Part shown: one piece after another, positions 9,684 to 34,173 of the stretch
Numbering within the stretch: the stretch's first letter is position 1
Layout of the letters: each line of letters opens with the position of its first letter
Assembly (NCBI GenBank): GCA_016211105.1
Contig: JACQSX010000050.1
Span: 59,347 to 123,346 of the forward strand
Direction: 5' to 3'
DNA length: 64,000 nucleotides
Origin: Acidobacteriota bacterium
GTDB lineage: Bacteria; Acidobacteriota; UBA6911; JACQSX01
Notes under the pieces: generated by a model
Told to the model about the DNA's origin: nothing
The model's database searches: none
The model's input: only the letters and a program-made list of their open reading frames with translations
Translations under genes and position numbers: made by a program

Positions 9684-10718
9684 ATGAAATTCGGAATAAC
9701 TCTTCCGTCTTTTACATGGCCTGGCATGGATTGTCCAATGGCCCGGCGCATCACCGTAGACATGGCCAGACGAGCCGAGGAGCTGGGATTTGACTCTCTT
9801 ACCGTATGGGACCATATGCTGAGCGCCCCAGGACTTTACGGTGGTTCCTGGTTGGATCCCCTGGTCGTGCTCGGAGGTGCGGCGGCGGTAACCAAAACGA
9901 TCCCCATCGGCACACATATCCTGGTGGTCCCCATCCGCCATCCCGTCCTGTTGGCCAAAGAACTGGCGACCATAGATTCCATCTCCGGAGGACGTCTCTT
10001 TCTGGGAGTCGGACCAGGATGGAATGAGCCGGAGTTCACCTCGATGGGCATCGCCATGCGGGAGCGCGGCCGCCGCACCGATGAGATCCTCGACGCCCTT
10101 AGGCTGCTCCTGACTCAAGACAACGTCTCCTTCCATGGCGAGTTCTTTCACTTTGATAACGTCACGATCGAGCCTCGACCCAAGAAATATTTCACCATCT
10201 GGGTAGCCGGGGGCTCGCGTGTTCCCGATCCACTTTCCCCTGACAAACCATACATGGTCAAAACCGTGCTGGAGCGCATCCTCAAACACGCAGATGTATT
10301 TACTTGCCGCGCCTCTGGAAAAACCGAATGGGTTGCGCGCGATTTCGATGCAGTGAAGCAATATCTACAATCCGCGGGACGAGATCCCAACACTCTTGGC
10401 CTGGCTCACGTACAGGCTGGATATCTCGTAGACACGGCTGACCGAGAGAAAGCTCTCTCGCTGCAGCGCAGACCGATGCAGACCATGATGGGCTCTCACC
10501 GAAGTTGGGAACATCTGCAGGAGTGCTACATGGTAGGCACCTTCGATGATATTGTAGCGCGCTTGAAATTTCTGGAGAGCAAGGGTCTAGAACACGTGAC
10601 AATCCACCCTGCGGCGCCCGAAATGGAACAGCTTGATTTGTGGATGAAGAAGATCATCCAACCAAATTTCAGAGGAAGGGATCGGCCTCAGGTGGCTAAT
10701 TATCACACGCGACATTAG
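9684..10718 (+). CDS. luciferase-like monooxygenase (LLM) family flavin/F420-dependent oxidoreductase
   Basis: 344 aa, MKFGITLP start and TIM-barrel LLM-like sequence; adjacent to F0-synthase genes. Confidence 0.75.
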   Translation: MKFGITLPSFTWPGMDCPMARRITVDMARRAEELGFDSLTVWDHMLSAPGLYGGSWLDPLVVLGGAAAVTKTIPIGTHILVVPIRHPVLLAKELATIDSISGGRLFLGVGPGWNEPEFTSMGIAMRERGRRTDEILDALRLLLTQDNVSFHGEFFHFDNVTIEPRPKKYFTIWVAGGSRVPDPLSPDKPYMVKTVLERILKHADVFTCRASGKTEWVARDFDAVKQYLQSAGRDPNTLGLAHVQAGYLVDTADREKALSLQRRPMQTMMGSHRSWEHLQECYMVGTFDDIVARLKFLESKGLEHVTIHPAAPEMEQLDLWMKKIIQPNFRGRDRPQVANYHTRH

Positions 10719-12010
10719 GTTAGTAAGCCGGTGCGGTCCCGCTTCTCTCTCCTGTGAAATCGAAATTCGTTCAGACGAGTGAGATGATGATAGGAACCAA
10801 ACCTCGTGGCGTCTTCCTCTGTCAATCGGTCAAGTGGTTCCGGCGCATCACCGTTTGGGTCATCAAATCGACGGAGCGTCTTGTACAGGGTTGAGCGCTC
10901 TACCGGAGTCCGGCCAGCGTCCCGGATGCAGCGCCGAAGATCGCTCGGCCGAACCATCTGTCCATAACTTGCGCCGGCCGCCGTCGAGATACTCTCATTA
11001 ATCAACGTGCCTCCTAGGTCGTTCGCACCGGCAGCTAAGCAAGCCTGCGAAAGCTTCATTCCTTCCTTTACCCAGGAAACCTGGAGATTGGGAATGTCTC
11101 GGTTGAGTACGAGACGACTGACGGCGTGCATCTTGAGCACTTCCATTCCAGAGGCTCCGGCTCGTACGCCCTTGACCAGACCGTCCCGGTACAAGGGCGC
11201 CTCCCAAGGAACAAAGCTCAGCGGCACAAATTCGGTGAATCCTCCCGTCCGCCGCTGCAAGTTACGAAGTAGAAGAAGGTGTCTGGCGCAATGACGCCCG
11301 GTTTCGAGATGACCATACATGATCGTGGCGGTAGTCGGGATGCCCAGCGAATGCGCAGTGGTGATCACTTCGATCCACTGGGCAGTGTTAATGCGACCGG
11401 GAGAGATCCTGTTGCGGAGCTCGTCGTCAAGAATCTCGGCGGAAGTTCCCGGTAGACTGCCGATTCCGGAAGCTTGTAATTCGGTTAGGTATTCCTTGAT
11501 GCTCATGCCGGAGCATTGCACTCCGTAAAGGACCTCCTCTGGCGAGAACGCGTGAATATGGATTTGAGGAAGTGCCTCTTTGATGGCGCGGCAAAGTCGG
11601 AGGTAGAGGTCTCCTTCCATATCCGGGGGAAGACCTGCCTGGATACAGACCTCCGTCGCCCCATAGCGCTCCGCCTCACGCGCCCGACGAATGATTTCTT
11701 CCTCGGGAAGATAGTATCCCTCCTGGCTGCGATGAGTTCTGCTAAACGCGCAAAAACTGCAGCGTTTAATGCAGACATTGGTGAAATTGATGTTGCGGTT
11801 GACCACATAGGTGACGACGTCTCCCACTTTTTCCCGGCGCAGATGGTCAGCCGCAATCAGAAGGGCGAGAAACTCAGCTCCAGTCACGGAAAATAGCCAT
11901 GTGACTTCTTCTTCCGTCAAATCCCGCTCTTCCAAGGAGCGCTGAAGAATCTGGGCCGCTTCAGAGCTGATTTCGCTCAGGAGCTTTTCAATGCCGATCA
12001 AATCTTTCAC
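10715..12010 (-). CDS. cofH: F0 synthase subunit CofH (radical SAM; 5-amino-6-(D-ribitylamino)uracil-tyrosine 4-hydroxyphenyl transferase)
   Basis: Radical SAM CxxxCxxC motif CIKRCSFCAF; CofH-like length (431 aa); GTG start at 12010, 9 nt after cofG stop. Confidence 0.85.
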   Translation of the reverse strand: MKDLIGIEKLLSEISSEAAQILQRSLEERDLTEEEVTWLFSVTGAEFLALLIAADHLRREKVGDVVTYVVNRNINFTNVCIKRCSFCAFSRTHRSQEGYYLPEEEIIRRAREAERYGATEVCIQAGLPPDMEGDLYLRLCRAIKEALPQIHIHAFSPEEVLYGVQCSGMSIKEYLTELQASGIGSLPGTSAEILDDELRNRISPGRINTAQWIEVITTAHSLGIPTTATIMYGHLETGRHCARHLLLLRNLQRRTGGFTEFVPLSFVPWEAPLYRDGLVKGVRAGASGMEVLKMHAVSRLVLNRDIPNLQVSWVKEGMKLSQACLAAGANDLGGTLINESISTAAGASYGQMVRPSDLRRCIRDAGRTPVERSTLYKTLRRFDDPNGDAPEPLDRLTEEDATRFGSYHHLTRLNEFRFHRREKRDRTGLLT

Positions 12011-12019
12011 TCCTCTGAT

Positions 12020-13144
12020 TCATGTAAAAGCCAGATACCCCTGCGGATCAGCCTCGCAGCGAAGTCGCCGGAGCAGGTGTTCGGGCAGATAGTGATCGTT
12101 CTCCACAATGTACTCGGGATAAACAGGAAAGCGGGCTCGCAGCTCAAATCCCGCGGTGTCCATCTCCCTGCGCATTCGGGCAATGTGCGGCCAGGGCGCT
12201 TCTGGATTGACATAGTCGATGGTCACCGGCGAAATCCCTCCCCAATCGTTGATCCCGGCATTCAGGTAGATCAAGTATGAGTCATTGCCATCATCGGACG
12301 CCAGGTTGGGCGGCACCTGGATATTCATCTCACCGCCGAAAATAATTCTCGCCGTTGCCACCACTTGAAGCATCTCTGCCAGCGAGGCCTCGCGGGCGTG
12401 CTCCATCGGCGTGCCTGGCTTGGCACGGAAATTCTGAATAATCACCTCCTGGATATGACCATATTGCTCTTGAAGATCCCGGATGGCAAGCAATGCCTCT
12501 ACGCGTTCCTCGACCGTCTCGCCGATCCCAATCAAAAGACCGGTCGTAAATGGAATCTTCAGCTCTCCTGCTAAACGAAGCGGCCTCAACCGTACTTCTG
12601 GCCTCTTGCTGGGAGCATACTCGTGAGGCCCACCGGCTTGACTTAAGCGTGCACTGCTGCTCTCCAACATCAGCCCCATCGAGGCGTTGACCTGCTTGAG
12701 ATCTTCGAGTTCGGAGCGACTGAGCGTTCCGGGATTACTATGGGGATAAAGAGCGGTTTCTTGGAGCACTAATGCGCACATATCGCGCAAATATTCCAGA
12801 GTGCTGTCATAACCATGTTCTCGCAGCCAAGATCGTGCTTCAGGATAGCGTTGCTCCGGCCGTTCCCCAAGCACGAACAGCGCTTCACGACAGCCCGACC
12901 TCTCACCCGCTCGCGCGACCGCCAGCACCTCCTCCGCACTCATGTACAGGTGTTCCCCTTGCTGTGGGCTTTGCCTGAAAATACAGTAACCACAAAAGTC
13001 ACGGCACAATCGCGTGAGAGGAATAAACACTTTCGGGGAGAAACTCACCACGCGACCTTTTTTTTTGTCGCGGATCGTACGGGCGGCGGCACACAATTCG
13101 TCCACATTCATGCTCGTATCAATCGCCATGTTGCCGGCTTTCAT
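12020..13144 (-). CDS. cofG: F0 synthase subunit CofG (radical SAM; 7,8-didemethyl-8-hydroxy-5-deazariboflavin synthase)
   Basis: Radical SAM motif CRDFCGYC near N-terminus, 374 aa; immediately upstream of cofH on same strand. Confidence 0.85.
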   Translation of the reverse strand: MKAGNMAIDTSMNVDELCAAARTIRDKKKGRVVSFSPKVFIPLTRLCRDFCGYCIFRQSPQQGEHLYMSAEEVLAVARAGERSGCREALFVLGERPEQRYPEARSWLREHGYDSTLEYLRDMCALVLQETALYPHSNPGTLSRSELEDLKQVNASMGLMLESSSARLSQAGGPHEYAPSKRPEVRLRPLRLAGELKIPFTTGLLIGIGETVEERVEALLAIRDLQEQYGHIQEVIIQNFRAKPGTPMEHAREASLAEMLQVVATARIIFGGEMNIQVPPNLASDDGNDSYLIYLNAGINDWGGISPVTIDYVNPEAPWPHIARMRREMDTAGFELRARFPVYPEYIVENDHYLPEHLLRRLRCEADPQGYLAFT

Positions 13145-13202
13145 GCGTTCTCACCGTTCCTGCTCGGCATGCCCGGAGTGACCAACGACCCAGATATTTA
13201 CG

Positions 13203-13877
13203 TTACTCATGCTCAAGGCCTAGCACTCGGTATCGAGCGAACTTGATTTTGTACCGGCGGTTGATCATGACGGCCAATAGAGTCATTGCTTCAAGCGCGC
13301 GACAGGCGCGCAGCGGGCCAGCATCGATCCAGCGCAGTCCCGGAATTTTAGATACCACTTCGAGCGTATGCTCTTTAGCCTCAACAGAATCGGAAGAAAT
13401 AAAATCGTCGCATTCTAACCCTATATCTCGTTTCACGAGCAAATGCGCCGGCAAAGTCTTAAATGCCGCCACCAAGGGCACACGGTCCGGAAGCCGTCCG
13501 CGAATATATTCCGCTCCTGAGCCTTCACCTAAGTCCAGCAGGCGTGGTCCCTTATCGAAAACCACGGGAACGGTGACGTCAACCAAGATTTGATTCGAGG
13601 AAAACTGGTCGCGATACTGCTGCAAAACCGAATCCACGTGGACGAAAGGCACGGTAAGGAACAACAGATCTGAGTTCGCCACCAAGGTACGATTGTCCAC
13701 TCCTGCAACTCTTTCCTGTCCCAACTGCCGGTTAAGCTCGCCAGCTACCTGCTGTGCTCGTTCCAGCGAGCGGGAGCCCAAAGCTATCTGCAGACCCGCC
13801 GCCGCTAAACGCAGCGCGATGCCTTGTCCCTCCGTCCCGGTCCCGCTGATCATTCCGATCTTACATTCCTGCTTCAT
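13203..13877 (-). CDS. fno: NADPH-dependent F420 reductase (F420:NADP oxidoreductase-like, Rossmann fold)
   Basis: N-terminal Rossmann GxGxxG and GSRS region; ATG at 13877 overlaps upstream stop as ATGA. Confidence 0.7.
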   Translation of the reverse strand: MKQECKIGMISGTGTEGQGIALRLAAAGLQIALGSRSLERAQQVAGELNRQLGQERVAGVDNRTLVANSDLLFLTVPFVHVDSVLQQYRDQFSSNQILVDVTVPVVFDKGPRLLDLGEGSGAEYIRGRLPDRVPLVAAFKTLPAHLLVKRDIGLECDDFISSDSVEAKEHTLEVVSKIPGLRWIDAGPLRACRALEAMTLLAVMINRRYKIKFARYRVLGLEHE

Positions 13878-14539
13878 TCTGCTATTTCGATAAAGTCCAG
13901 ACCCCTGCGTCGATGCCAATCGCTGGGATCCGCCAGATACTCCTTCACCTGAGCTAGCGCTTCAGAAGATAGCAAGCTGAGTGCGCGCCCCGTCTCCAGG
14001 CAGCGAGAGATTCCCACCAAAGAATGCAACTTCACGCCGACACGCGCCAGACTCGCTTCGCCCCCCTGTTCGCGGTCGACCAAAACCAGGCAACGAGAAA
14101 TCATGCATCCCGCTTCTCTGATCGCCTCAATGAATGACAGCTTGCTTCCTCCATCGGTAATCAGATCCTCAAAAAGCAGAACTTCACCTTTTGGCACGCC
14201 TTCCAGACGACTCCCGGTACCGTGTTCCTTTTTTTTCTTGCGCACATACACGAAAGGCTTGTCCAATCTTTCCGCCAACCAAGCGCCAAAAGGGATTCCC
14301 GCAGTTTCGCCACCAGCAATACAGTCGGCAGCGATCTGGCGCTCGTGATACAGGCGTTGAGCAAAGCTAACAATGACACTGCGCGTGCCCGGATAGGAGA
14401 TCAAAAGACGACAGTTAATGTAGAGAGGTGTGAAATTCCCGGAGGACAATTGAAAGGGTTCCGTGCTGCTGACCTGGATCGCCCGATGCTCCCACAACAA
14501 TATTGAGATCAGTTCCCCTATTTTCTGATCCAGTCTCAT
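13874..14539 (-). CDS. pyrE: orotate phosphoribosyltransferase-like (type I PRTase)
   Basis: FQLSSGNFTPLYINCR and PRPP-binding loop LLFEDLITDGGS; internal ATG at 14539 chosen over longer track ORF. Confidence 0.65.
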   Translation of the reverse strand: MRLDQKIGELISILLWEHRAIQVSSTEPFQLSSGNFTPLYINCRLLISYPGTRSVIVSFAQRLYHERQIAADCIAGGETAGIPFGAWLAERLDKPFVYVRKKKKEHGTGSRLEGVPKGEVLLFEDLITDGGSKLSFIEAIREAGCMISRCLVLVDREQGGEASLARVGVKLHSLVGISRCLETGRALSLLSSEALAQVKEYLADPSDWHRRRGLDFIEIAE

Positions 14540-14875
14540 GAGGCTCGCTTGTATCAAAAATCTGATCTGATTTAAAGTGAGTGTAAATTTTACCCCACGG
14601 GCTCCGTAACTCTTTCTTGCATTCCGACCCCTCTGTGTACGGCAAGACTTGGTTGAGAGAAGAAATGCGTTTAAAAATTTTTGGGTGTTCTTTGGCATGT
14701 CGATTGCTATCACCCACTTGAATAGTTGTAGACTCGGGCCCTTCCAGGGACTAGAGGTACAGTCCCCGCAAGAGCCCCTATCGACGAGCGAGGCAGCCTA
14801 CCCCTGGGCAATGCCACAGCGGAGCGCAAACACTCCAAACCGGGATGGCCCTCATCGTCGGCCCGCGGAGGCACC

Positions 14876-16820: not shown

Positions 16821-18032
16821 TCAGCCAATCTGAAAGAGACCGGCGGTCAGTTCCCGACAGAACACAGGCATTCGAGCCAGTTCCGCGGTTACCAGGTCAT
16901 GCATGACGCCAGAGACATCTGAAAGGCGAACTCCGGAATTGAGGTGCCCTTGCACATAAACGACTTCAGGTTGGTCAACAGGTTTGCCAATCTGGCTACA
17001 CAGCCACACGATAACTTCTTCCAAGCCGCGTATCTCGGTTTGGAGCTTATGAGCCAGTGAATACGCAAGTACATTGTAGATTTTTCCGACGTGACTCATG
17101 GGATTCTTCCCTGCTGCAGCCTCCGATCCCGCGGGACGGTTGAACGAGATCAGGCCATTGACGCGGTTGCCCCTACCCACTTCCCCAGAATCAGCATCCT
17201 CAGCAGAAGTGCCCAAGACAGATGAATAGATTCCAACCAGACCGACTCCAGGCCGATCGATAGGATTGAGCCTCAGCTTCAACTCATCCAGCGCGTCCAG
17301 CCGACTCTGTAAGTAGGCCAGAACCGCTTCATAAATCCTTGCCTTACTTCCGAAATATTTCCTTTCGCTCTCCAGATACCTTTCTATCAAAGGCATCGCG
17401 ACTGTAAGATGCAAACTTCTGCCGGTCCGCACACCCATCACCTTGACATCTTCTCCCGTTTCCGCAAATTGCTTTTTGAAGCTCTCCGAGTTCAAATAGC
17501 GTTCGGTCTCTAATACCAGACGCTCAGTCTCACTTAGAGGAGCATAGCCCACTGCGGCAGAGGTGTCGTTGGCGCCGATCACGCCGTCGGCGCGTCGGTA
17601 CAAGTCCGCCAGCGCTTCCGATCCCGGCTTTAGCTCTACTTCATAATGTAAATGGCGATCGGGATCAACGTGGCGTAGGTTCTTTCGCACCCAGCCCTTG
17701 GCCGCTTCAATCGCGATGCTCTCCACATCTATTTTCTGTTCCGCCCAAAATGAGGTGGCCCGATCCCCAAGGATGAGGCGCATCGGCTCTAAAATGCGGC
17801 CTCCGCCCCATCGATGTTCTGCCCGACCCGCGATCAAAAGCGCTTTATCGCAGTTATAGTGAAGCATACCGCCTGCTTGCTCCAAATAAGCCTTCGATAG
17901 AGCCTGCGATACATTCTCCATAATACCGTCACACACTGTATCGGGATGACCCGTTCCTTTTCGCTCCACAATCTCCACTTCAAGCTCGCTGGTCTTCAGT
18001 CCTTGCGCCTGCTCGATATATATCCGGTTCAT
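16821..18032 (-). CDS. archaeal-type S-adenosylmethionine synthetase (methionine adenosyltransferase, MAT family)
   Basis: ERKGTGHPDTVCDG, GANDTSAAVGYAPLSETERLVLETE, GRGNRVNGLIS, GKNPMSHVGKIYN motifs match the archaeal MAT family rather than bacterial MetK; AAGGA RBS before ATG 18032. Confidence 0.8.
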   Translation of the reverse strand: MNRIYIEQAQGLKTSELEVEIVERKGTGHPDTVCDGIMENVSQALSKAYLEQAGGMLHYNCDKALLIAGRAEHRWGGGRILEPMRLILGDRATSFWAEQKIDVESIAIEAAKGWVRKNLRHVDPDRHLHYEVELKPGSEALADLYRRADGVIGANDTSAAVGYAPLSETERLVLETERYLNSESFKKQFAETGEDVKVMGVRTGRSLHLTVAMPLIERYLESERKYFGSKARIYEAVLAYLQSRLDALDELKLRLNPIDRPGVGLVGIYSSVLGTSAEDADSGEVGRGNRVNGLISFNRPAGSEAAAGKNPMSHVGKIYNVLAYSLAHKLQTEIRGLEEVIVWLCSQIGKPVDQPEVVYVQGHLNSGVRLSDVSGVMHDLVTAELARMPVFCRELTAGLFQIG

Positions 18033-18043
18033 GGCTCTATTCC

Positions 18044-18583
18044 TTAGAGATACCCCTGTTCCCGCAGTTTTTCCACTACCCTGCGAGCGGCCCTGGCCGG
18101 ATCCTCCCACTCTCCGGAAACCACCACTTCAGGATTTTCGGGAGGTTCGTAGGCCGCCTGCAAGCCGGGAATCATCGTTGCCTCCCCCACCTCGGCCTTA
18201 CGGTAAATCCCCTTCGGATCTCTGGCCATACATATGTTCAGAGGGCACTCAACAAAAACTTCGATAAACCTTGTGATGCGCTGCCGGGCGCGATCCCGAT
18301 AGACGCGCCGGTTAGCGGTGGCATCGAAGATCACAGAAATCCCGTGTTTGGTAAGAAGCTCTCCAACATAGGCCATCGCCCCATACAAGATTTCTCTCTC
18401 CCCTTCACTGTAAGTTGGATGAGGGGTAAGGATCTGGCGCAACGCGTCAGATTCTAACACCTCCGGCGCCGTTTCTCTGCAAGATAGCTCCCGGACCAAG
18501 GCCTTGGTGAGTGTAGACTTTCCAGAAGCCGGCAAACCGGTGATCCAGATTGCAAACCCCGGTTCCACGCTTAACTCCCACAA
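18044..18583 (-). CDS. cysC: adenylyl-sulfate (APS) kinase family protein
   Basis: P-loop GLPASGKST and C-terminal FIEVFVECPLNICMARDPKGIYRKA resembling APS kinase. Confidence 0.75.
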   Translation of the reverse strand: MWELSVEPGFAIWITGLPASGKSTLTKALVRELSCRETAPEVLESDALRQILTPHPTYSEGEREILYGAMAYVGELLTKHGISVIFDATANRRVYRDRARQRITRFIEVFVECPLNICMARDPKGIYRKAEVGEATMIPGLQAAYEPPENPEVVVSGEWEDPARAARRVVEKLREQGYL

Positions 18584-26742: not shown

Positions 26743-26919
26743 ATTCGGAGGTTACCGCCCTCTCTTGCAGTTTTTAAAATCGGCGTAGCCTATCAGTTTT
26801 CGCGCGCTAATTCAAAGAGCAATTTCAATCCCGAAGCTACCTCTCCGAAAGACTGCGGACAAATGGGGCCGTTTGGCCTATCATTGGGAAGTCCAATATG
26901 AGTCAAAGCAGGAGGACAG

Positions 26920-27042
26920 ATGAAACCCTGCAGAGAATGTCGGCATGAGATTTCAGAACAGGCAGTCTCTTGTCCCCAATGCGGGGCACCGTTTCCCGCC
27001 AGAGACAAATGGGATGGTTGGGGCTATGAGTACAAATCCTGA
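26920..27042 (+). CDS. zinc-ribbon peptide (40 aa), likely N-terminal part of one gene interrupted by in-frame TGA
   Basis: ATG at 26920 with GGAGGA 4 nt upstream; MKPCRECRHEISEQAVSCPQCGAPF (CxxC-x13-CxxC); stop TGA 27040-27042 in same frame as next ORF. Confidence 0.45.
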   Translation: MKPCRECRHEISEQAVSCPQCGAPFPARDKWDGWGYEYKS

Positions 27043-27057
27043 CTTACCATTTTCGGA

Positions 27058-27330
27058 TTGCCCCTTGTCCATGTCTCTTTCAAATATCGGCCAAACCGAG
27101 TACCCGTCGTAGCAAAAGGCATCATCGCCATTGGGCAGTTTGGGTGTCGTGTCATTACCATCGCTCAGTTTGGCATCGGGCTCTTCAGCGTCAGCCAGTT
27201 CACTGTTGCGGCCTTTGCCCTTGCGCAGTTCGCGTTGGCTTATTCTCTGATTGCCCAAATCGGTCTGTATATCCACCAACGATACGGACAGTTCGTGAAA
27301 GGCGTGATGGAAGTCATCAAGACTCTCTAA
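27058..27330 (+). CDS. decapeptide-repeat protein (five AQFG-type repeats of 10 aa)
   Basis: Repeats AIGQFG/TIAQFG/SVSQFT/ALAQFA/LIAQIG with 30-nt period, conserved at protein more than DNA level; no ATG start, same frame as zinc-ribbon ORF. Confidence 0.45.
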   Translation: MPLVHVSFKYRPNRVPVVAKGIIAIGQFGCRVITIAQFGIGLFSVSQFTVAAFALAQFALAYSLIAQIGLYIHQRYGQFVKGVMEVIKTL

Positions 27331-27347
27331 AAACTGCATACAGCCTA

Positions 27348-29600
27348 ATGAAAAGGAATCTGCTAACGATTGTCACCTGGGTAGTAACGCTGTTTCTCAC
27401 GTTGAGTCAGCCTGCCACTCCTGCTCGGGGACCCACAGAGTCGTCTCTACCCGCAGAGACGCGCCCTGGGGCGACTTTCGAACAGTGGGAAGGAGTCTTG
27501 CCTGCCTCTTACCGCACGCCAGCGGTCGGAGAGGTTACTGTCCGTGCCTCGGGAAGAGGGTACCCCTGGATCAACCTGGCCGACGGTCGCGACCTTCCCA
27601 TCTTTTATCCGGAAAAGGACGCGGTAGGGGTGCTGAAAAACCACGCAATGCGACCTTTGTCGCTGGCTGCGGCCGACTTCGATGAGGATGGTGTGCCGGA
27701 CCTGGTGAGTGGTTACGAGGCAGCCGGAGCCGGTTTCCTGCTGGTGCAGCGAGGCAACATTGATTTCCTGCACCCGTACACAGCAGGCGCGCAGCAACGC
27801 AAGGCCTCGGGCGAGGTTAATTCTTTTCCTTTTGCACCGCAGGCGATTGTGGTTGAGTTGCCCGCTGCGCCAGATTTTCTGGGAAGCGGCGACTTTGACG
27901 CCGACGGCCACTGGGATCTTGTAGCGGCTGCGCGGGGAAGCAACCTAGTTCACTGGGCATCGGGCGACGGCCGAGGCGCATTTACAGCAGCAAGGGAAAT
28001 CGCCTTGCCTGGAACCGTCACAGCGCTGGCCACCGGTGATGTCAACAGGGCGGATGGCCTGGAAGACATTCTGGTGGGCGTCTCAGGCAAGAATGGACCA
28101 GAGCTCTTGGTGTTTGAGGGACCGGCGGGAGCCCTGGCGGAGGGTACTGCGGCCGGAGGAAGAGATAAGGGCGCTGAAGGCCTGCTGCATAGGCCGGAAA
28201 GTTTTCCGCTGGATGCCGAGGCAGTTTCCATTGTCACGGGACAGCTCAACCTAGATTATCCGACCGACGTTGCCGTTGCGGCCGGAACCGAGTTACTGAT
28301 CATTTATGGCCGCGACCACAGGCTGTCTTGGAATCAGGAGTCCAGACAGCAAGTAGGTCCGGCGACAACCGAGCGCCTCCAATTTTCAGTCGCGATCCGC
28401 TCTATCGCGGCGGGAGACTTTCGTGGAAATGGTAGCGCTGCTCTGGCCCTGCTATTCAATGATGGTCGCCTGGAGCTCTGGGACGCCGATATCGAGAGGG
28501 AGCGGCAGCAGTTGCAAAGTAATGGCGCCACAACAGCGGCTGAGAGCAGTGCCCTTTCTCACGCCCAGTCCGGCGATGTTCACCGTGCATGGAAGCGCTC
28601 CTGGAATCCGGGAGCGGTGCTCCAAGCTCCTCCCAGTTCCCAAGCTCTATCGGCTCTGCTGGTCAGGACGCGTGCCGCCAGCATTGCGAAAGATGCTCTG
28701 CTGGTGATCGATTCTGTCAGCCGGCAATTGCATCTTTGGGTTGAGAACGAAGTTTCCGACGGGCGATCCGACAACTTCACCAAGCTGGAAAGCGGCTCCT
28801 TGTTGATTTCTGAGACTCTTCAAATGCAGGAATCTCCGGTTTCCGTCTTACCCATGCGCCTGAACGGCGATGCCCTGACTGATCTGGCCATTTTGAAGAG
28901 CGGAGGCCATCCCATTGTGTGGGCCGAGACGGCTCCGGGAGCGATTATCACGGTCAACAGTAGCGGCGACACGTCCGCCCGAGACGCCGTGTTGACGCTG
29001 CGAGAGGCGATGTCGATTGCCAATGGAAGTTTGGCAGTGTCGAGCCTGACTTCTGCAGAAAGGGCTCAGGTTTCCGGAACACCGGCAAATCCAGGGCTGG
29101 ATGAAATCCGTTTTGCAGGAGTGACATCCATTACTGTTGGGGTAGGAGGATTTCCCAGCCCGGGTACATCCAATCCGATTACGATCGACGCAAGATCGGC
29201 GGGAAGAGTGGAGGTCAAACAGGCCGGCAACGCTGGTGTCCAGGTCAGCGTTTCAACCGGCAACAGCACAATTCGGAACCTCGCTATTGGCGGCATCCGA
29301 ATGGGAACGAGGGGGTCCAATGTAGTGGCTGGCAACTACCTCGGTTTTGATCTCAATCAGAACACTTTTGCATCGCCGGGAAGTTCTTATGGCATTTCGG
29401 CTGACAATGGGTCGACTGACAACAGGATCGGTGGAACCACGGCAGCAGATCGCAATGTAATTGCCATGTCGGGCTTCGCGCGTGATGACCTGTCGATTTC
29501 CGGCGGCTCGCACCGCAATCAAGTCCTGGGCAACTACGCCGGCACCGATGTCGCACAGGCACGCAGGCCAAGGGCAATCGACGCGGAATCACGATTGTAG
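27348..29600 (+). CDS. giant secreted FG-GAP/VCBS-repeat, CSLREA and right-handed beta-helix protein, fragment 1 of 3 (frameshifted gene)
   Basis: Signal peptide MKRNLLTIVTWVVTLFLTLSQPA; FG-GAP-like DxDGxxD repeats; CSLREA-like TLREAMSIANGS; beta-helix repeats; reading frame breaks near 29557. Confidence 0.75.
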   Translation: MKRNLLTIVTWVVTLFLTLSQPATPARGPTESSLPAETRPGATFEQWEGVLPASYRTPAVGEVTVRASGRGYPWINLADGRDLPIFYPEKDAVGVLKNHAMRPLSLAAADFDEDGVPDLVSGYEAAGAGFLLVQRGNIDFLHPYTAGAQQRKASGEVNSFPFAPQAIVVELPAAPDFLGSGDFDADGHWDLVAAARGSNLVHWASGDGRGAFTAAREIALPGTVTALATGDVNRADGLEDILVGVSGKNGPELLVFEGPAGALAEGTAAGGRDKGAEGLLHRPESFPLDAEAVSIVTGQLNLDYPTDVAVAAGTELLIIYGRDHRLSWNQESRQQVGPATTERLQFSVAIRSIAAGDFRGNGSAALALLFNDGRLELWDADIERERQQLQSNGATTAAESSALSHAQSGDVHRAWKRSWNPGAVLQAPPSSQALSALLVRTRAASIAKDALLVIDSVSRQLHLWVENEVSDGRSDNFTKLESGSLLISETLQMQESPVSVLPMRLNGDALTDLAILKSGGHPIVWAETAPGAIITVNSSGDTSARDAVLTLREAMSIANGSLAVSSLTSAERAQVSGTPANPGLDEIRFAGVTSITVGVGGFPSPGTSNPITIDARSAGRVEVKQAGNAGVQVSVSTGNSTIRNLAIGGIRMGTRGSNVVAGNYLGFDLNQNTFASPGSSYGISADNGSTDNRIGGTTAADRNVIAMSGFARDDLSISGGSHRNQVLGNYAGTDVAQARRPRAIDAESRL

Positions 29601-29614
29601 ACTCACAGAACAAC

Positions 29615-30736
29615 GTGATTGGGGGCACAGAGGCCGGAGCGGGCAACCTGATTTCCGGGGTAGTAATCGACCGCAGCGTGGGGCCGGATCCGGACGGTAA
29701 CAGAATCCAGGGAAATATCATCGGCCTGAACGCCCGCGGGGACGCGAGGGTGAGTAATCAGTCTTACGGCATCGCTCTTCACTCCGGGAAAGAGACGACA
29801 ATCGGCGGGACATCGCCTGCCGCCCGAAACGTAGTTTCAGGAAACGTGGCAGACGGCATTTTTCTCAATAGCAGTGTCACAGGGATCCAGATTCAGGGCA
29901 ACTATATTGGAACCGATGCCGCCGGTTCTCAGGCCATCGGCAATGGAGACGTTAATACTCCTTTTTCGGAGGAGGCTATTCACATCCAGGGCCCAAAAAA
30001 CATCGTGGGCGGTTCGGTGCCGGGAGCCCGCAATGTCATCTCTGGAAACAGGGGAAGCGGGATTGTCGTCGCTTCCCAGGGGGAAAACCAAATCCTTGGA
30101 AACTACATCGGAGTATCTGCGAGCGGTGCCTCCGCCTTAGGCAATGGCTGGGACGGGATTATCGTGAGCAATTCCGCCAGGAATGTCATCGGCGGCGCGA
30201 CGGCAGGGGCGGGCAACGTCATCTCGGGCAACCGGCGGAACGGCGTCGACATGGGAGGCAATGAATCTACCGGAAACCGGTTGCAGGGAAACCTGATCGG
30301 CACCGATGCCACTGGGACCCAATCCCTCGGAAACAGCGAGGTCGGGGTGAATTTGGGTGGAAACAATAACACCCTCGGAGGATTGACTCCGGCGGAGCGC
30401 AATGTCATCTCCGGAAACACGCTGGATGGAGTGATCATCAGTGGAGTTTTTGGAAACCAGCGGAACAGGATCATCGGGAACTACATTGGCACGGATATCC
30501 GCGGGATTGGGGCGCTCGGCAACGGTGGTAGCGGAGTGCTGTTGATCACCGAAGAGCAGTTTGTCTCGGGGGCACGGAAACCGGCGCAGGCAACACCATC
30601 GCGTTCAACCGCGGTGACGGCGTCTGGGTCAACGCCGGATCGCGTAACTCCATTGTATCCAATTCTATCTTCTCCAACGCGAAACTGGGAATTGAACTGG
30701 GAACCGACTCCAGGACTGATTTGGGCAACGGTGTGA
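29615..30736 (+). CDS. beta-helix repeat protein, fragment 2 of 3 (same gene, shifted frame)
   Basis: Continuous NxIxGNxIGTDAxGxxxLGN beta-helix repeats; frame open from 29489; track start GTG is artefactual. Confidence 0.7.
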   Translation: MIGGTEAGAGNLISGVVIDRSVGPDPDGNRIQGNIIGLNARGDARVSNQSYGIALHSGKETTIGGTSPAARNVVSGNVADGIFLNSSVTGIQIQGNYIGTDAAGSQAIGNGDVNTPFSEEAIHIQGPKNIVGGSVPGARNVISGNRGSGIVVASQGENQILGNYIGVSASGASALGNGWDGIIVSNSARNVIGGATAGAGNVISGNRRNGVDMGGNESTGNRLQGNLIGTDATGTQSLGNSEVGVNLGGNNNTLGGLTPAERNVISGNTLDGVIISGVFGNQRNRIIGNYIGTDIRGIGALGNGGSGVLLITEEQFVSGARKPAQATPSRSTAVTASGSTPDRVTPLYPILSSPTRNWELNWEPTPGLIWATV

Positions 30737-33081
30737 CACCTAATGATCCCGGTGATGCCGACGCGGGTGCCAATCAGCTACAGAACTTTCCGGTCCTGAC
30801 GCCGGCGCCGGGCGGCGCGGGCCTGACCGTAGCGCTCAACAGCAGAAGCACCGATAGCCCCTTTCGCATCGAGCTTTTCTCCAACGCGGCCTGCGATCCC
30901 TCTGGGCACGGGGAAGGCGAACGACTATTGCAGGTGATAGAAAATGTGAGCCTGGATTCGAGCGGCAACTTTGCGCGCACCATTGCATTGCCTTCCGGGC
31001 GGTTTTTCACGGCAACCGCTACCGATCGTAATGGCAATACCTCGGAGTTTTCCGCCTGCGCGGGGGCTGCGCCCCCTTTTGAAGCATTCATCGTCAATTC
31101 AACCTCCGATCGGCCAGACAGGACGACAGGAGATGGCCGCTGCGATACAGGGGAAACCATCGGGGGGCGGGCCGAGTGCACGCTGCGGGCGGCGATCCAG
31201 GAGGCCAACAGCAAGAGCGGGACAGACGTCATTCGTTTCAACATCGCCGGGATGGTTCCTCACCGCATTCAGCCAGGATCTCCGTTGCCTATAGTGACAG
31301 ACCCGGTGACGATTGATGGGTCCTCGCAGCCTGGGTTTGATACTGCGCCTGTGGTGGAGCTAAACGGTCTGGAAGCAGGAAGCCAGGCAAGCGGCCTGGA
31401 AGTGGCTGCCGGGAACTCAACCATCAAGGGGTTGATCATCAGCCAGTTCAAAGTCCATGGGATCTTAATCAGGGGCAGCGGTGCAAACCGCATTGTCAAT
31501 AATCTGATCGGCACTGACAGCAGTGTCTCGCGCGTAATCGGAAACGTGCACTCGGGAATCGCGGTATCGGAATCTGCCAACAACATTATCGGGGGCGAAC
31601 CGGTTGACGGTAACGTTATTGCCGGAAATGGAAATGATGCGATCACCGAAGGCTTCGCCGCCGGTATTTTCATTGCTGGAACAAACGCCAAGAAGAACGT
31701 GATTGCGGGAAACGCGATATTGGCTAATGTCAGAGGGATCTTTATCATCGACGCATCGGGCACGACCATCGGCGGAGAAACGATTCAGCGGGCCAATGCG
31801 ATACGGTTTAATGTCCGTGAAGGCATCGTTATCTCCGGGGCGGCCGTTTCCAATTCCATTCTGGTCAACTCCATCTCCGATAATGGCGCCCTCGGAATTG
31901 ATCTTGCAGGGGACGGCCCTGAGGGGATCGATCTGCGAGACGCAGATACCGGGCCGAACGGTTTGCAGAACGCGGCGGAGATCTATTCAGCGACGGCTAC
32001 GGCCAGCGGCGATACCAGCCGGGTCCGGATGCGGCTTAGAAGCGCTAAGAACGAAACCTTTACCGTTCGATTCTTCACCGGCACTACGCCAGATCCTTCG
32101 GGTTACGGGGAAGGCGATACTTTTGTTCTTACTAGAAACGTCACCACGAGCGACTCAGGCTATGGCCCCACATCATTCGTATCTCCGGTGAAGCTGGGAA
32201 AATTCCTCAGTTGCACAGTCACAGACGCACAGGGCAATACGTCCGAGTTCTCGGCGGCGGCGCCGATCAAGCTCGATAGCGACGGCGATAGCGTGAGCGA
32301 CGAGGAGGAGAATCTTAATGGCGGGGACGCGAACGGGGACTTTACACCCGACAGGCTGCAGCCAAATGTGCAACCCCTCACAACTTCGTCCGGGCGACGT
32401 GTCGCCATCGAAGTTTCGCAAGAGAGTGTGTTAACCAATGCAAGCACGTATCTCGCCGCGTTGGCAGGCGCAACTTTATTTGAAGGCCAGTTTGGAAGGC
32501 CGCTTGGCTTTTACGAGCTGTTTGCCCGATTTACCGTGGGCGCAAAGTCTCCTTTCCAGGTTATGGGTGGTTCAACGACTGTAACGCTCTTTGTCCCACC
32601 CGAACTTAAGTTCACGTCCTACCTTAATTACGGACCGACACCGGACAATCCAACGCCTCACTTTTACCAATTCATGTTTGACGGAAAGACGGGCGCGGAG
32701 TTCAAAACGGGCCGGATTCTGCTTCACCTGGTCGATGGGCAGCGCGGCGATCATGACCTCGCCGCCAATGGAGAGATCACCACGCTGGGCGGGCCGGTCA
32801 TCGGTATGCCGAACAGATTTTTCATTCCTCTTTACCGGTCTGACCCCTCAACCTTTACCGGCTACGCAGTTTCAAATTTTTCTGCGCGTGACGCCAACAT
32901 TCAGTTCACCGCATTGGATTTCGACGGGATTGCGTTGAGCACGCTGAATAACCCAAGCTCATTTCTCCTCAAGCCTGGGAACCAATTGGCGCTGCTGGGG
33001 AGGCAAGTATTTTCCGACGATTATTTAGATCCGCAGAGAGAGACGACTCTGTCCGTCCCGGAGCAGGAAGTAGCAGGCTGA
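30721..33081 (+). CDS. beta-helix repeat protein C-terminal part, fragment 3 of 3 (same gene, shifted frame)
   Basis: Frame open upstream and continues beta-helix repeats across a GGGGG run at 30568-30572; C-terminal domain with DGQRGDHDLAANGEITTLGGP. Confidence 0.7.
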   Translation: MGNGVTPNDPGDADAGANQLQNFPVLTPAPGGAGLTVALNSRSTDSPFRIELFSNAACDPSGHGEGERLLQVIENVSLDSSGNFARTIALPSGRFFTATATDRNGNTSEFSACAGAAPPFEAFIVNSTSDRPDRTTGDGRCDTGETIGGRAECTLRAAIQEANSKSGTDVIRFNIAGMVPHRIQPGSPLPIVTDPVTIDGSSQPGFDTAPVVELNGLEAGSQASGLEVAAGNSTIKGLIISQFKVHGILIRGSGANRIVNNLIGTDSSVSRVIGNVHSGIAVSESANNIIGGEPVDGNVIAGNGNDAITEGFAAGIFIAGTNAKKNVIAGNAILANVRGIFIIDASGTTIGGETIQRANAIRFNVREGIVISGAAVSNSILVNSISDNGALGIDLAGDGPEGIDLRDADTGPNGLQNAAEIYSATATASGDTSRVRMRLRSAKNETFTVRFFTGTTPDPSGYGEGDTFVLTRNVTTSDSGYGPTSFVSPVKLGKFLSCTVTDAQGNTSEFSAAAPIKLDSDGDSVSDEEENLNGGDANGDFTPDRLQPNVQPLTTSSGRRVAIEVSQESVLTNASTYLAALAGATLFEGQFGRPLGFYELFARFTVGAKSPFQVMGGSTTVTLFVPPELKFTSYLNYGPTPDNPTPHFYQFMFDGKTGAEFKTGRILLHLVDGQRGDHDLAANGEITTLGGPVIGMPNRFFIPLYRSDPSTFTGYAVSNFSARDANIQFTALDFDGIALSTLNNPSSFLLKPGNQLALLGRQVFSDDYLDPQRETTLSVPEQEVAG

Positions 33082-33752
33082 CTTAACATGAGAAGCAGCG
33101 CTGCCGCCCAGGCGACAATCGTTAGCGGATTCCTTCTCATTAGGACCCTTATTCTAGCTTTAAGACTCTCACCACTCCAAGATCCGGCATTAAAGGAAAG
33201 CACGCAAGGGAAAAACAGGGTAGAGTCTTCTATTCTTACCGATAGGGGAACAACCGGTGGAGGGCTGGAGATTTACCTCATTCGGGTTTTCAACCTGCTT
33301 TTGTACAACACGTCGACTGCTTACCGAACCGAGCCCCTATTCTAACTTTGCAGCCTGATTCGGTCCAGTGCGCGAAGTGCCGAATCAAAAATCTACTCGA
33401 AGGATTCGTTGACTGATTTAGGTTGCTTGAAATTGACCGACTGCCTACTTCTGAGGCAAACAAGAATCAACTGCAAGGGGGGGGACCAAAGCCGCCGCCG
33501 CTCAAAAGTCAAAGGAGCGCGTCCACTTCAGACTAGCGAACGGCCACGCAGACCGGAATCGTAACCGACGGAACCGCGACGATCAGAGAGCGCCTGGAAG
33601 AACGGACTCGCTTCGGGGAAGCCGCCGCCAGAAGAGCTGCTGGCTCTTAAATGAACAACATTGGTATCGAGGAAGGGACCTGCAGGTGAAGTCAATAACT
33701 TACGTCCTTCGCGGTCAAAGAAGTTTCTGAAAGCGGCCGGAACGTTCCGCCA

Positions 33753-34004
33753 TTACTGACTTTCGCCGCTCCGCCGGTTGTTCAGACCGCGCTGCTCGGG
33801 CGAAAACCCATGCAATTCAGCGATCGTTCCATCTTCTCTGAAAACTCGAATCCGGATAGGAACCCCAGGGGGGAGTTCCAGTTGGCTCAAGGCCGCGTCG
33901 ACGGTGCCAGAAGTTGCAATCACCAGCGGGCTATCCTGCTTGACAATTTTCCATCCTTTCTCGAAACGCAAAATTTCATAGACGATCTCCCTGAACTGCG
34001 GCAT
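33753..34004 (-). CDS. small hypothetical protein (83 aa)
   Basis: GAGGAGGG 4 nt upstream of ATG; downstream of BON gene on same strand. Confidence 0.5.
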   Translation of the reverse strand: MPQFREIVYEILRFEKGWKIVKQDSPLVIATSGTVDAALSQLELPPGVPIRIRVFREDGTIAELHGFSPEQRGLNNRRSGESQ

Positions 34005-34173
34005 CGCGCCCTCCTCTCTGACCTGAATCCCAAACAGGGCGAATGTTTTTCTCGACTTACCTCTTTGGCGAGCGATGAATCTACTATTAGCTCCTTACGC
34101 CTTCCTGCCGATACAACTTCTTGCTGGTACCCGTGCTCCAACCGGTAAATTACAGTCTTAGCACCTCCACAAG

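Follow-up and report, generated by a model that had tools for sequence, protein, structure and literature searches.

Does a stop codon that separates two short open reading frames mark the boundary between two genes, a site of recoding or the disruption of a single gene? This question is raised by a locus in a metagenome-assembled genome (MAG) of an Acidobacteriota bacterium, which we have analysed within a stretch of 64,000 nucleotides termed the window. In this locus, a 40-residue open reading frame at 26920–27042 and the sequence at 27043–27330 lie in one frame, with TGA 27040–27042 alone between them, and a giant gene starts at ATG 27348, 17 nucleotides 3' of the TAA at 27328–27330. The locus contains one gene with a one-off stop and without recoding signals, and we consider it highly probable that the premature TGA is not programmed and reflects neither a recoding event nor a unit of two genes.

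Reading frame and homology of the interrupted gene

The first reading frame is preceded by the Shine-Dalgarno sequence AGGAGGA (26910–26916, plus strand), which contains GGAGG at 26911–26915 and is followed after a spacer of 3 nucleotides by ATG 26920. The same GCAGGAGGA block is found 5' of the start of the closest intact homologue, the protein P0001 encoded at locus L077, as in the window copy. Codons 1–40 (26920–27039, plus strand) encode the peptide MKPCRECRHEISEQAVSCPQCGAPFPARDKWDGWGYEYKS, which comprises a zinc ribbon of the composition C4-x2-C7-x10-C18-x2-C21 and a WDGWGYEYKS segment. An earlier note on this DNA had described this frame as a 40-residue zinc-ribbon peptide with a strong ribosome-binding site that ends at TGA 27040–27042, as is seen in the sequence, and its two CxxC pairs are present, although they are separated by 10 residues instead of the 13 that had been assigned. 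The TGA (27040–27042, plus strand) occupies codon 41 in a variable column of the linker and is followed by a C. Codons 42–136 (27043–27327, plus strand) encode the rest of the gene, which starts with LTIFGLPLVHVSFKYRPNR and continues through a repeat domain to a C-terminal tail, and they carry no start signal of their own. The first start-type codon past the stop, TTG 27058, is located five codons further on and opens the same-frame stretch of 90 residues without ATG that had likewise been noted, and since GGAGG does not occur on the plus strand between 26916 and 28139, this second reading frame is devoid of a Shine-Dalgarno sequence. The native TAA stop (27328–27330, plus strand) terminates a C-terminus that aligns with the ends of homologues.

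When the TGA is read through, the fused sequence of 136 residues matches 3,658 proteins, which align from end to end as uninterrupted chains of about 136–137 residues and come from many phyla, the best of them with an E-value of 8.5e-72 at 80% identity and 100% coverage, and the pair of reading frames is thus more than a product of chance. The best 120 of the 3,658 matches comprise 133–153 residues (almost all of them 133–142) and show 93–100% coverage and 70–83% identity, and alignments of 25 and of 120 sequences are collinear across the junction without a break, where they show the pattern WDGWG[FY]EYKS-x-x-T-x-FGLPLVH[IV]SFKYRPNR. In a scan covering one genome per species, most of the 76 loci found match residues 1–133 or 1–136 in a single segment, with identities to the read-through of 60–78% for most of them, and at none of these loci is the protein encoded by a pair of genes that each have a start, which is the arrangement that the earlier note had named as evidence against an interrupted gene. 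Four cysteines (C4, C7, C18 and C21) and five glutamines (Q73, Q83, Q93, Q103 and Q113) never vary among 120 homologues, and the window copy contains all of them. The family, whose members comprise about 136 residues, also shares a conserved linker of the pattern WDGWG[FY]EYKS-x4-GLPLVH[IV]SFKYRPNR. The zinc ribbon of the window copy scores 24.6 bits against the Pfam family Zn_Ribbon_1 (PF13240, cutoff 25) and 20.2 bits against Zn_ribbon_3 (PF13248, cutoff 27), and several close homologues carry precomputed matches to either of the two. Since full-length homologues are collinear and fused, the two same-frame reading frames are, as judged from sequence comparison, parts of one conserved gene of 136 codons. 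The search for fused homologues that had been proposed has thus yielded a clear answer, and the suggestion that a nonsense mutation or a sequencing error splits what is a single gene is strongly supported by thousands of fused and uninterrupted relatives.

The relationship to proteins that NCBI labels 'zinc ribbon domain-containing protein' is equally evident on the level of individual members. The window copy is collinear over 136 residues at 70–80% identity with the proteins of Desulforegula conservatrix (P0052) and of a Nitrospirota MAG (P0040), and likewise with the loci of Pontiella sulfatireligans (L018) and Desulfobacter vibrioformis (L013), sharing with the family the same four cysteines, the linker, the five glutamines at a spacing of 10, the length and the C-terminus, whereas it differs in the TGA at codon 41 and in arginines at the positions of G77 and G121. 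The uninterrupted frame that marks a functional member is absent from the window copy owing to this TGA, and the gene is a disrupted copy of the family by descent and not a demonstrably functional member of it.

Age and origin of the premature stop

With the closest intact homologue as reference, codons 1–40 show 15 synonymous differences and a single non-synonymous one, which concerns the start, where the window copy uses ATG and L077 GTG, at a dN/dS of 0.008 and with all 40 residues identical to those of P0001, and codons 42–136 show a dN/dS of 0.09–0.14 with saturated dS. The branch leading to the window copy does not carry an excess of amino-acid changes (11 unique changes compared to 10), and its distance to the family consensus of 25 is close to the family mean of 23 ± 7. 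Faster protein evolution on the window lineage was thus not detected and only two replacements, G77R and G121R, stand out. Codon 77 (CGT, 27148–27150, plus strand) encodes an arginine where a glycine is found in 120 of 120 homologues, and codon 121 (CGA, 27280–27282, plus strand) an arginine where 119 of 120 contain a glycine. Two or more such deviations at columns that are at least 98% conserved occur in only 4 of the 120 homologues, and the two replacements are some sign of damage or relaxed constraint beyond the stop. Since the codons downstream of the TGA are as conserved as in intact members, the stop is either very recent or an artefact, and the lesion would accordingly have arisen by nonsense mutation a very short time ago or stem from a wrong base call or consensus in the MAG. 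A downstream frame without further decay would also fit a gene that is still functional. The earlier note had taken the conservation of the repeats as evidence for selection on the protein, which holds for the family (with a dN/dS of about 0.1) but not as proof that the broken copy is still expressed.

The codon that preceded the stop is suggested by the homologues, since in 73 loci CGA (at two) and GGA (at three) are found as codons one step from TGA, and a single substitution of CGA or GGA, and thus an ancestral arginine or glycine, would most simply account for its origin. Degraded copies are also found elsewhere in the family. The copy at L066:1255-1663 is frameshifted, those at L070:8001-8195 and L073:8001-8156 are truncated, and L074:2666-3043, a second copy in a gammaproteobacterial MAG that also contains an intact one (L036), carries several stops and frameshifts, which illustrates that losing this gene is nothing out of the ordinary. 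The window copy resembles ordinary nonsense pseudogenes in its single premature stop within a recognisable gene and in the disruption of a neighbouring gene, but it differs from them in the lack of further decay beyond the stop and the two glycine-to-arginine replacements, and if real, the mutation would thus be very young.

The disrupted neighbour is the adjoining giant gene (27348–33081, plus strand), which encodes FG-GAP repeats and a NosD-like right-handed beta-helix. It had been noted as a giant adhesin gene, but it is not intact, since two frameshifts divide its sequence between three frames and its 3' end is rearranged. On the plus strand, open stretches are found up to 29600 in frame 0, at 29489–30736 in frame 2 and at 30532–33081 in frame 1. 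Both frameshifts (at about 29545–29560 and 30555–30575) are located within the repeat unit GNYIGTDxxGTQxLGN...NxIGG...GAGNxISGN, and neither site is a homopolymer run. At the junction near 29,550, '...GNYAGTDV' in frame 0 is continued by 'TGTQAKGNRRGITIVDSQNNVIGGTEAGAGNLISG' in frame 2, and at the junction near 30,570, '...GNGGSGVLLIT' in frame 2 is continued by '...LGGTETGAGNTIAFN' in frame 1. The two ends of the gene are related by an inverted repeat of about 115 nucleotides (27344–27457 and 33030–33144), whose arms are 82–86% complementary. Its distal arm at 33030–33144 is a diverged inverted copy of the start of the giant gene with its signal peptide, which overlaps with the last codons of the gene and is contained in a minus-strand reading frame starting with 'MRRNPLTIVAWAAALLLMLSQPAT' (33021–33203). 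This inverted copy could have been left behind by a paralogue or by an inversion in the past; alternatively, the two copies could be the arms of an invertible segment of 5.6 kb. Together with the premature stop, the two frameshifts amount to three lesions that disable genes within a distance of about 3.6 kb in an otherwise clean window. This points to a local cause, and it argues for either a real decay or rearrangement of the locus or a consensus that is unreliable near a repetitive gene for a surface protein that varies between strains.

The second of these possibilities underlies the most serious alternative to a real mutation, in which the gene of the organism would be intact and the T at 27040 mis-called or part of a chimeric consensus, in a region of the MAG that differs between strains, with the neighbouring frameshifts perhaps originating from the same faulty consensus. 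We assign to it a sizeable but minor probability. It is in line with the origin of the sequence from a metagenome, with the perfect preservation of the downstream frame at a normal substitution rate and with the clustering of the three lesions next to 20 other genes that are clean, as would be expected around a giant surface-protein gene with internal repeats. However, the lesion is a substitution and not an indel, the frameshifts in the giant gene are found outside of homopolymer runs, the inverted copy of its 5' end is sufficiently divergent to be genuine sequence and not a fold-back, and the replacements at codons 77 and 121 would require two additional errors. An independent copy for comparison was not found, as a scan for exact DNA in a metagenome collection returned no near-identical match and the scan of one genome per species no locus of more than 78% identity. 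In light of the two replacements, the two frameshifts and the rearranged end of the adjoining gene and the clean remainder of the window, we lean towards a real mutation, and the best reading is that this copy was inactivated recently and that its locus in the MAG is affected by local decay or local mis-calling.

Recoding, coupled translation and the antisense strand

From the arrangement of the described signals we infer the following fate of translation. A weak sigma-70-like promoter match upstream of the gene (CGGACA-17-TATCAT, 26856–26884, plus strand) may serve to initiate transcription. It agrees with 9 of 12 consensus positions, although about 0.5 such sites are expected by chance in the region and the match is one to the consensus only. 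Ribosomes would then initiate at ATG 26920 and terminate at the UGA at 27040, releasing a zinc-ribbon peptide of 40 residues that lacks the hydrophobic domain, and the 95 downstream codons would remain untranslated except for rare re-initiation or read-through. The latter relates to the cytosine following the stop, since UGA followed by C, a context reportedly described by Poole, Brown and Tate in 1995, is said to be the weakest termination context in E. coli, and some full-length protein could thus still be made. It would be a stronger claim that the TGA is genuine, tolerated and leaky, with the strain producing a free zinc-ribbon peptide next to a reduced amount of full-length protein. We regard this as improbable, and if true it would constitute a newly arisen attenuation by a leaky stop in a gene of an uncharacterised family that extends across phyla.

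Even less probable is programmed recoding, in which the UGA would be decoded as selenocysteine or serve in functional read-through, and where the full-length protein, possibly together with a 40-residue isoform, would be made on purpose. Such a mechanism would account for the intact and conserved downstream frame, and the leakiness of the UGA-C context has also been reported for mammalian systems (PMC8310186). Like a bacterial selenoprotein gene, the window copy contains an in-frame UGA in a conserved reading frame whose downstream part is still conserved, but it lacks homologues with cysteine or selenocysteine at the site, a hairpin and a recurrence of the stop. In 120 homologues the aligned column is variable, with Gln in 28, Lys in 27, Glu in 25, Arg in 16, Pro in 6, Ala in 5, Asn in 4, Gly and Thr in 3 each, Ser in 2 and Asp in 1, and it never contains Cys or Trp. 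A SECIS-like structure 3' of the TGA, which the earlier note had proposed to look for, was not found, as the RNA at 27034–27110 folds with a minimum free energy of -10.3 kcal/mol and thus no better than its shuffled versions (mean -9.75 kcal/mol, z -0.21).

The stop itself is a singleton. None of 73 homologous genome loci carries a stop at the site of codon 41, and a search of the metagenome collection and of the fetched loci with the pattern WG[FY]EYKS-TRR-x4-GLP (where TRR stands for TAA, TAG, TGA or TGG) did not return a match. In control searches, the pattern caught 28 of 77 family loci when the flanks were kept and the codon between them was left free, and the window sequence itself matches the stop pattern. 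A stop that occurs once cannot reflect selection across the family, and selenocysteine incorporation, programmed read-through and reassignment of the code are for this reason unsupported. With respect to the latter, TGA is the commonest ordinary stop in the window, where it ends 17 of 38 long reading frames, and 20 other genes of the window show full-length Pfam matches under translation table 11. TGA is thus an ordinary stop in this organism, and its reassignment according to tables 4 and 25 was rejected, as was selenocysteine in view of the column without cysteine, the missing hairpin and the lack of recurrence. Genes for tRNAs were not found within the 64-kb window. A recoded stop, as considered in the earlier note, is therefore not what the sequence and its homologues indicate.

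The same note had considered a coupled unit of two reading frames. In such a functional split, for which we see only a very small chance, translation coupled across the TGA would yield two separate products that act together, the peptide with the zinc ribbon and a protein that begins at TTG 27058 and carries the repeat domain. The TTG is located five codons past the stop, and some short database entries of 88–113 residues, which match the second part from residue 1 or 2, contain the C-terminal domain only. Against this, these entries may be fragments from contig edges, the TTG is not preceded by a Shine-Dalgarno sequence, a start at this position would remove the conserved LTIFG segment, and the full-length homologues are all fused, with not a single one of them organised as two genes.

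We consider it extremely unlikely that the real gene is the long, ATG-initiated antisense reading frame of 128 residues (26953–27339, minus strand), since the plus frame has thousands of protein homologues and differs from the closest of them overwhelmingly by synonymous changes, and since antisense frames, although reaching at least 120 codons in 27 of 65 homologous loci, are interrupted in many others (median 108 codons, range 49–136), which together effectively rule out this candidate. The frame had been described as featureless and is indeed a compositional by-product across these 65 loci, where the repeats, rich in Ala, Gly, Gln and Phe, keep the antisense strand open, and annotation of the family will thus regularly yield spurious antisense calls.

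The zinc-ribbon and glutamine-repeat family in its wider context

The five hydrophobic decapeptide units of the gene (residues 68–117; 27121–27270, plus strand) had been described as repeats centred on AQFG that are conserved on the level of the protein and divergent on the level of DNA. The units and the divergence of their DNA are confirmed, with about 47% mutual nucleotide identity and no tandem repeat detected by TRF, but in amino-acid sequence the units are only about 30% identical to each other, and the conservation comes down to a glutamine at every tenth residue. The true signal of the repeat is this glutamine, usually as part of a Gln-Phe pair, at an exact spacing of 10 residues. Kyte-Doolittle means over 19 residues reach values of 1.1–1.8 between residues 70 and 110, and the region is thus as hydrophobic as membrane segments. 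A model obtained with AlphaFold2 from 120 homologues shows a moderate overall pLDDT of 71, with values of 75–92 over residues 40–90, and predicts the repeats to be rich in beta-structure. Residues 42–136 did not match any family in Pfam or NCBIfam at E-values up to 1 except for one chance match at 0.2, and the repeat region is without a profile match to pentapeptide, RTX or other repeat families of Pfam. A comparison to PADLOC did not reveal a matching model, and in PHROGs only the zinc ribbon was matched. Among known systems, the RTX nonapeptide beta-roll, the heads of YadA-like adhesins and the pentapeptide repeats, which form beta-solenoids or beta-rolls from short repeats, come closest. 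The Gln-every-10 domain may represent a new membrane-associated or solenoid-like fold, and we infer that members of the family are small self-contained proteins, predicted to consist of a cytoplasmic zinc ribbon and a membrane-embedded or solenoid-like hydrophobic domain with a ladder of glutamines.

When the 95 residues of the second part were searched exhaustively with phmmer, 290 clusters at 50% identity were returned, and in most relatives the repeat domain starts at about residue 43, following a zinc ribbon of about 40 residues. The 76 genome loci are distributed over Nitrospirota, Acidobacteriota, Desulfobacterota, Geobacter, Verrucomicrobiota, Kiritimatiellia, Planctomycetota, Gammaproteobacteria, Binatia, Armatimonadota and others, and the protein is 60–78% identical across at least ten phyla. 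Identity is kept at 65–80% across Acidobacteriota, Nitrospirota, Desulfobacterota, Verrucomicrobiota, Planctomycetota, Gammaproteobacteria and others. It is unusual to see a small protein without assigned function conserved to this degree, and the conservation implies a strongly constrained and self-contained role that has apparently been studied by nobody. The family itself is unnamed, and we did not find a paper containing its sequence motifs. Its gene neighbourhood is not conserved across the 76 loci, where the largest cluster of neighbours, found at 16 of them, consists of generic receiver and kinase proteins of two-component systems, and there is no association with phages or defence systems and no family copy on viral contigs. 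In the window, the internal stop would lead annotation pipelines to call the zinc-ribbon gene a pseudogene. Neither this gene nor the giant FG-GAP/beta-helix gene is to be taken as intact, which makes the locus a flag for sequence quality. The family is known but uncharacterised, and its member in the window is a gene broken in an ordinary manner or one affected by an error in base calling.

Upstream of the zinc-ribbon gene, a DUF5916/CBM9 gene and a gene for an RpoD-type sigma factor are oriented divergently, and the nearest orthologues of the DUF5916 protein are 64–70% identical and not syntenic. Beyond the giant gene, the region at 33145–34170, which extends over about 1 kb to a BON-domain gene, contains only short reading frames without Pfam match (such as the one at 33699–34148) and may be non-coding or the decayed remainder of a rearranged locus. 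Further away on the minus strand, at 10715–14713 and 16821–18110, a gene cluster with an archaeal-type AdoMet synthetase (PF01941) nearby comprises two radical-SAM genes, one of them with a CofH/MqnC C-terminal domain, a gene resembling F420-dependent NADP oxidoreductases and a phosphoribosyltransferase gene, and it may be a neighbourhood for cofactor biosynthesis of the F420 or menaquinone-futalosine type.
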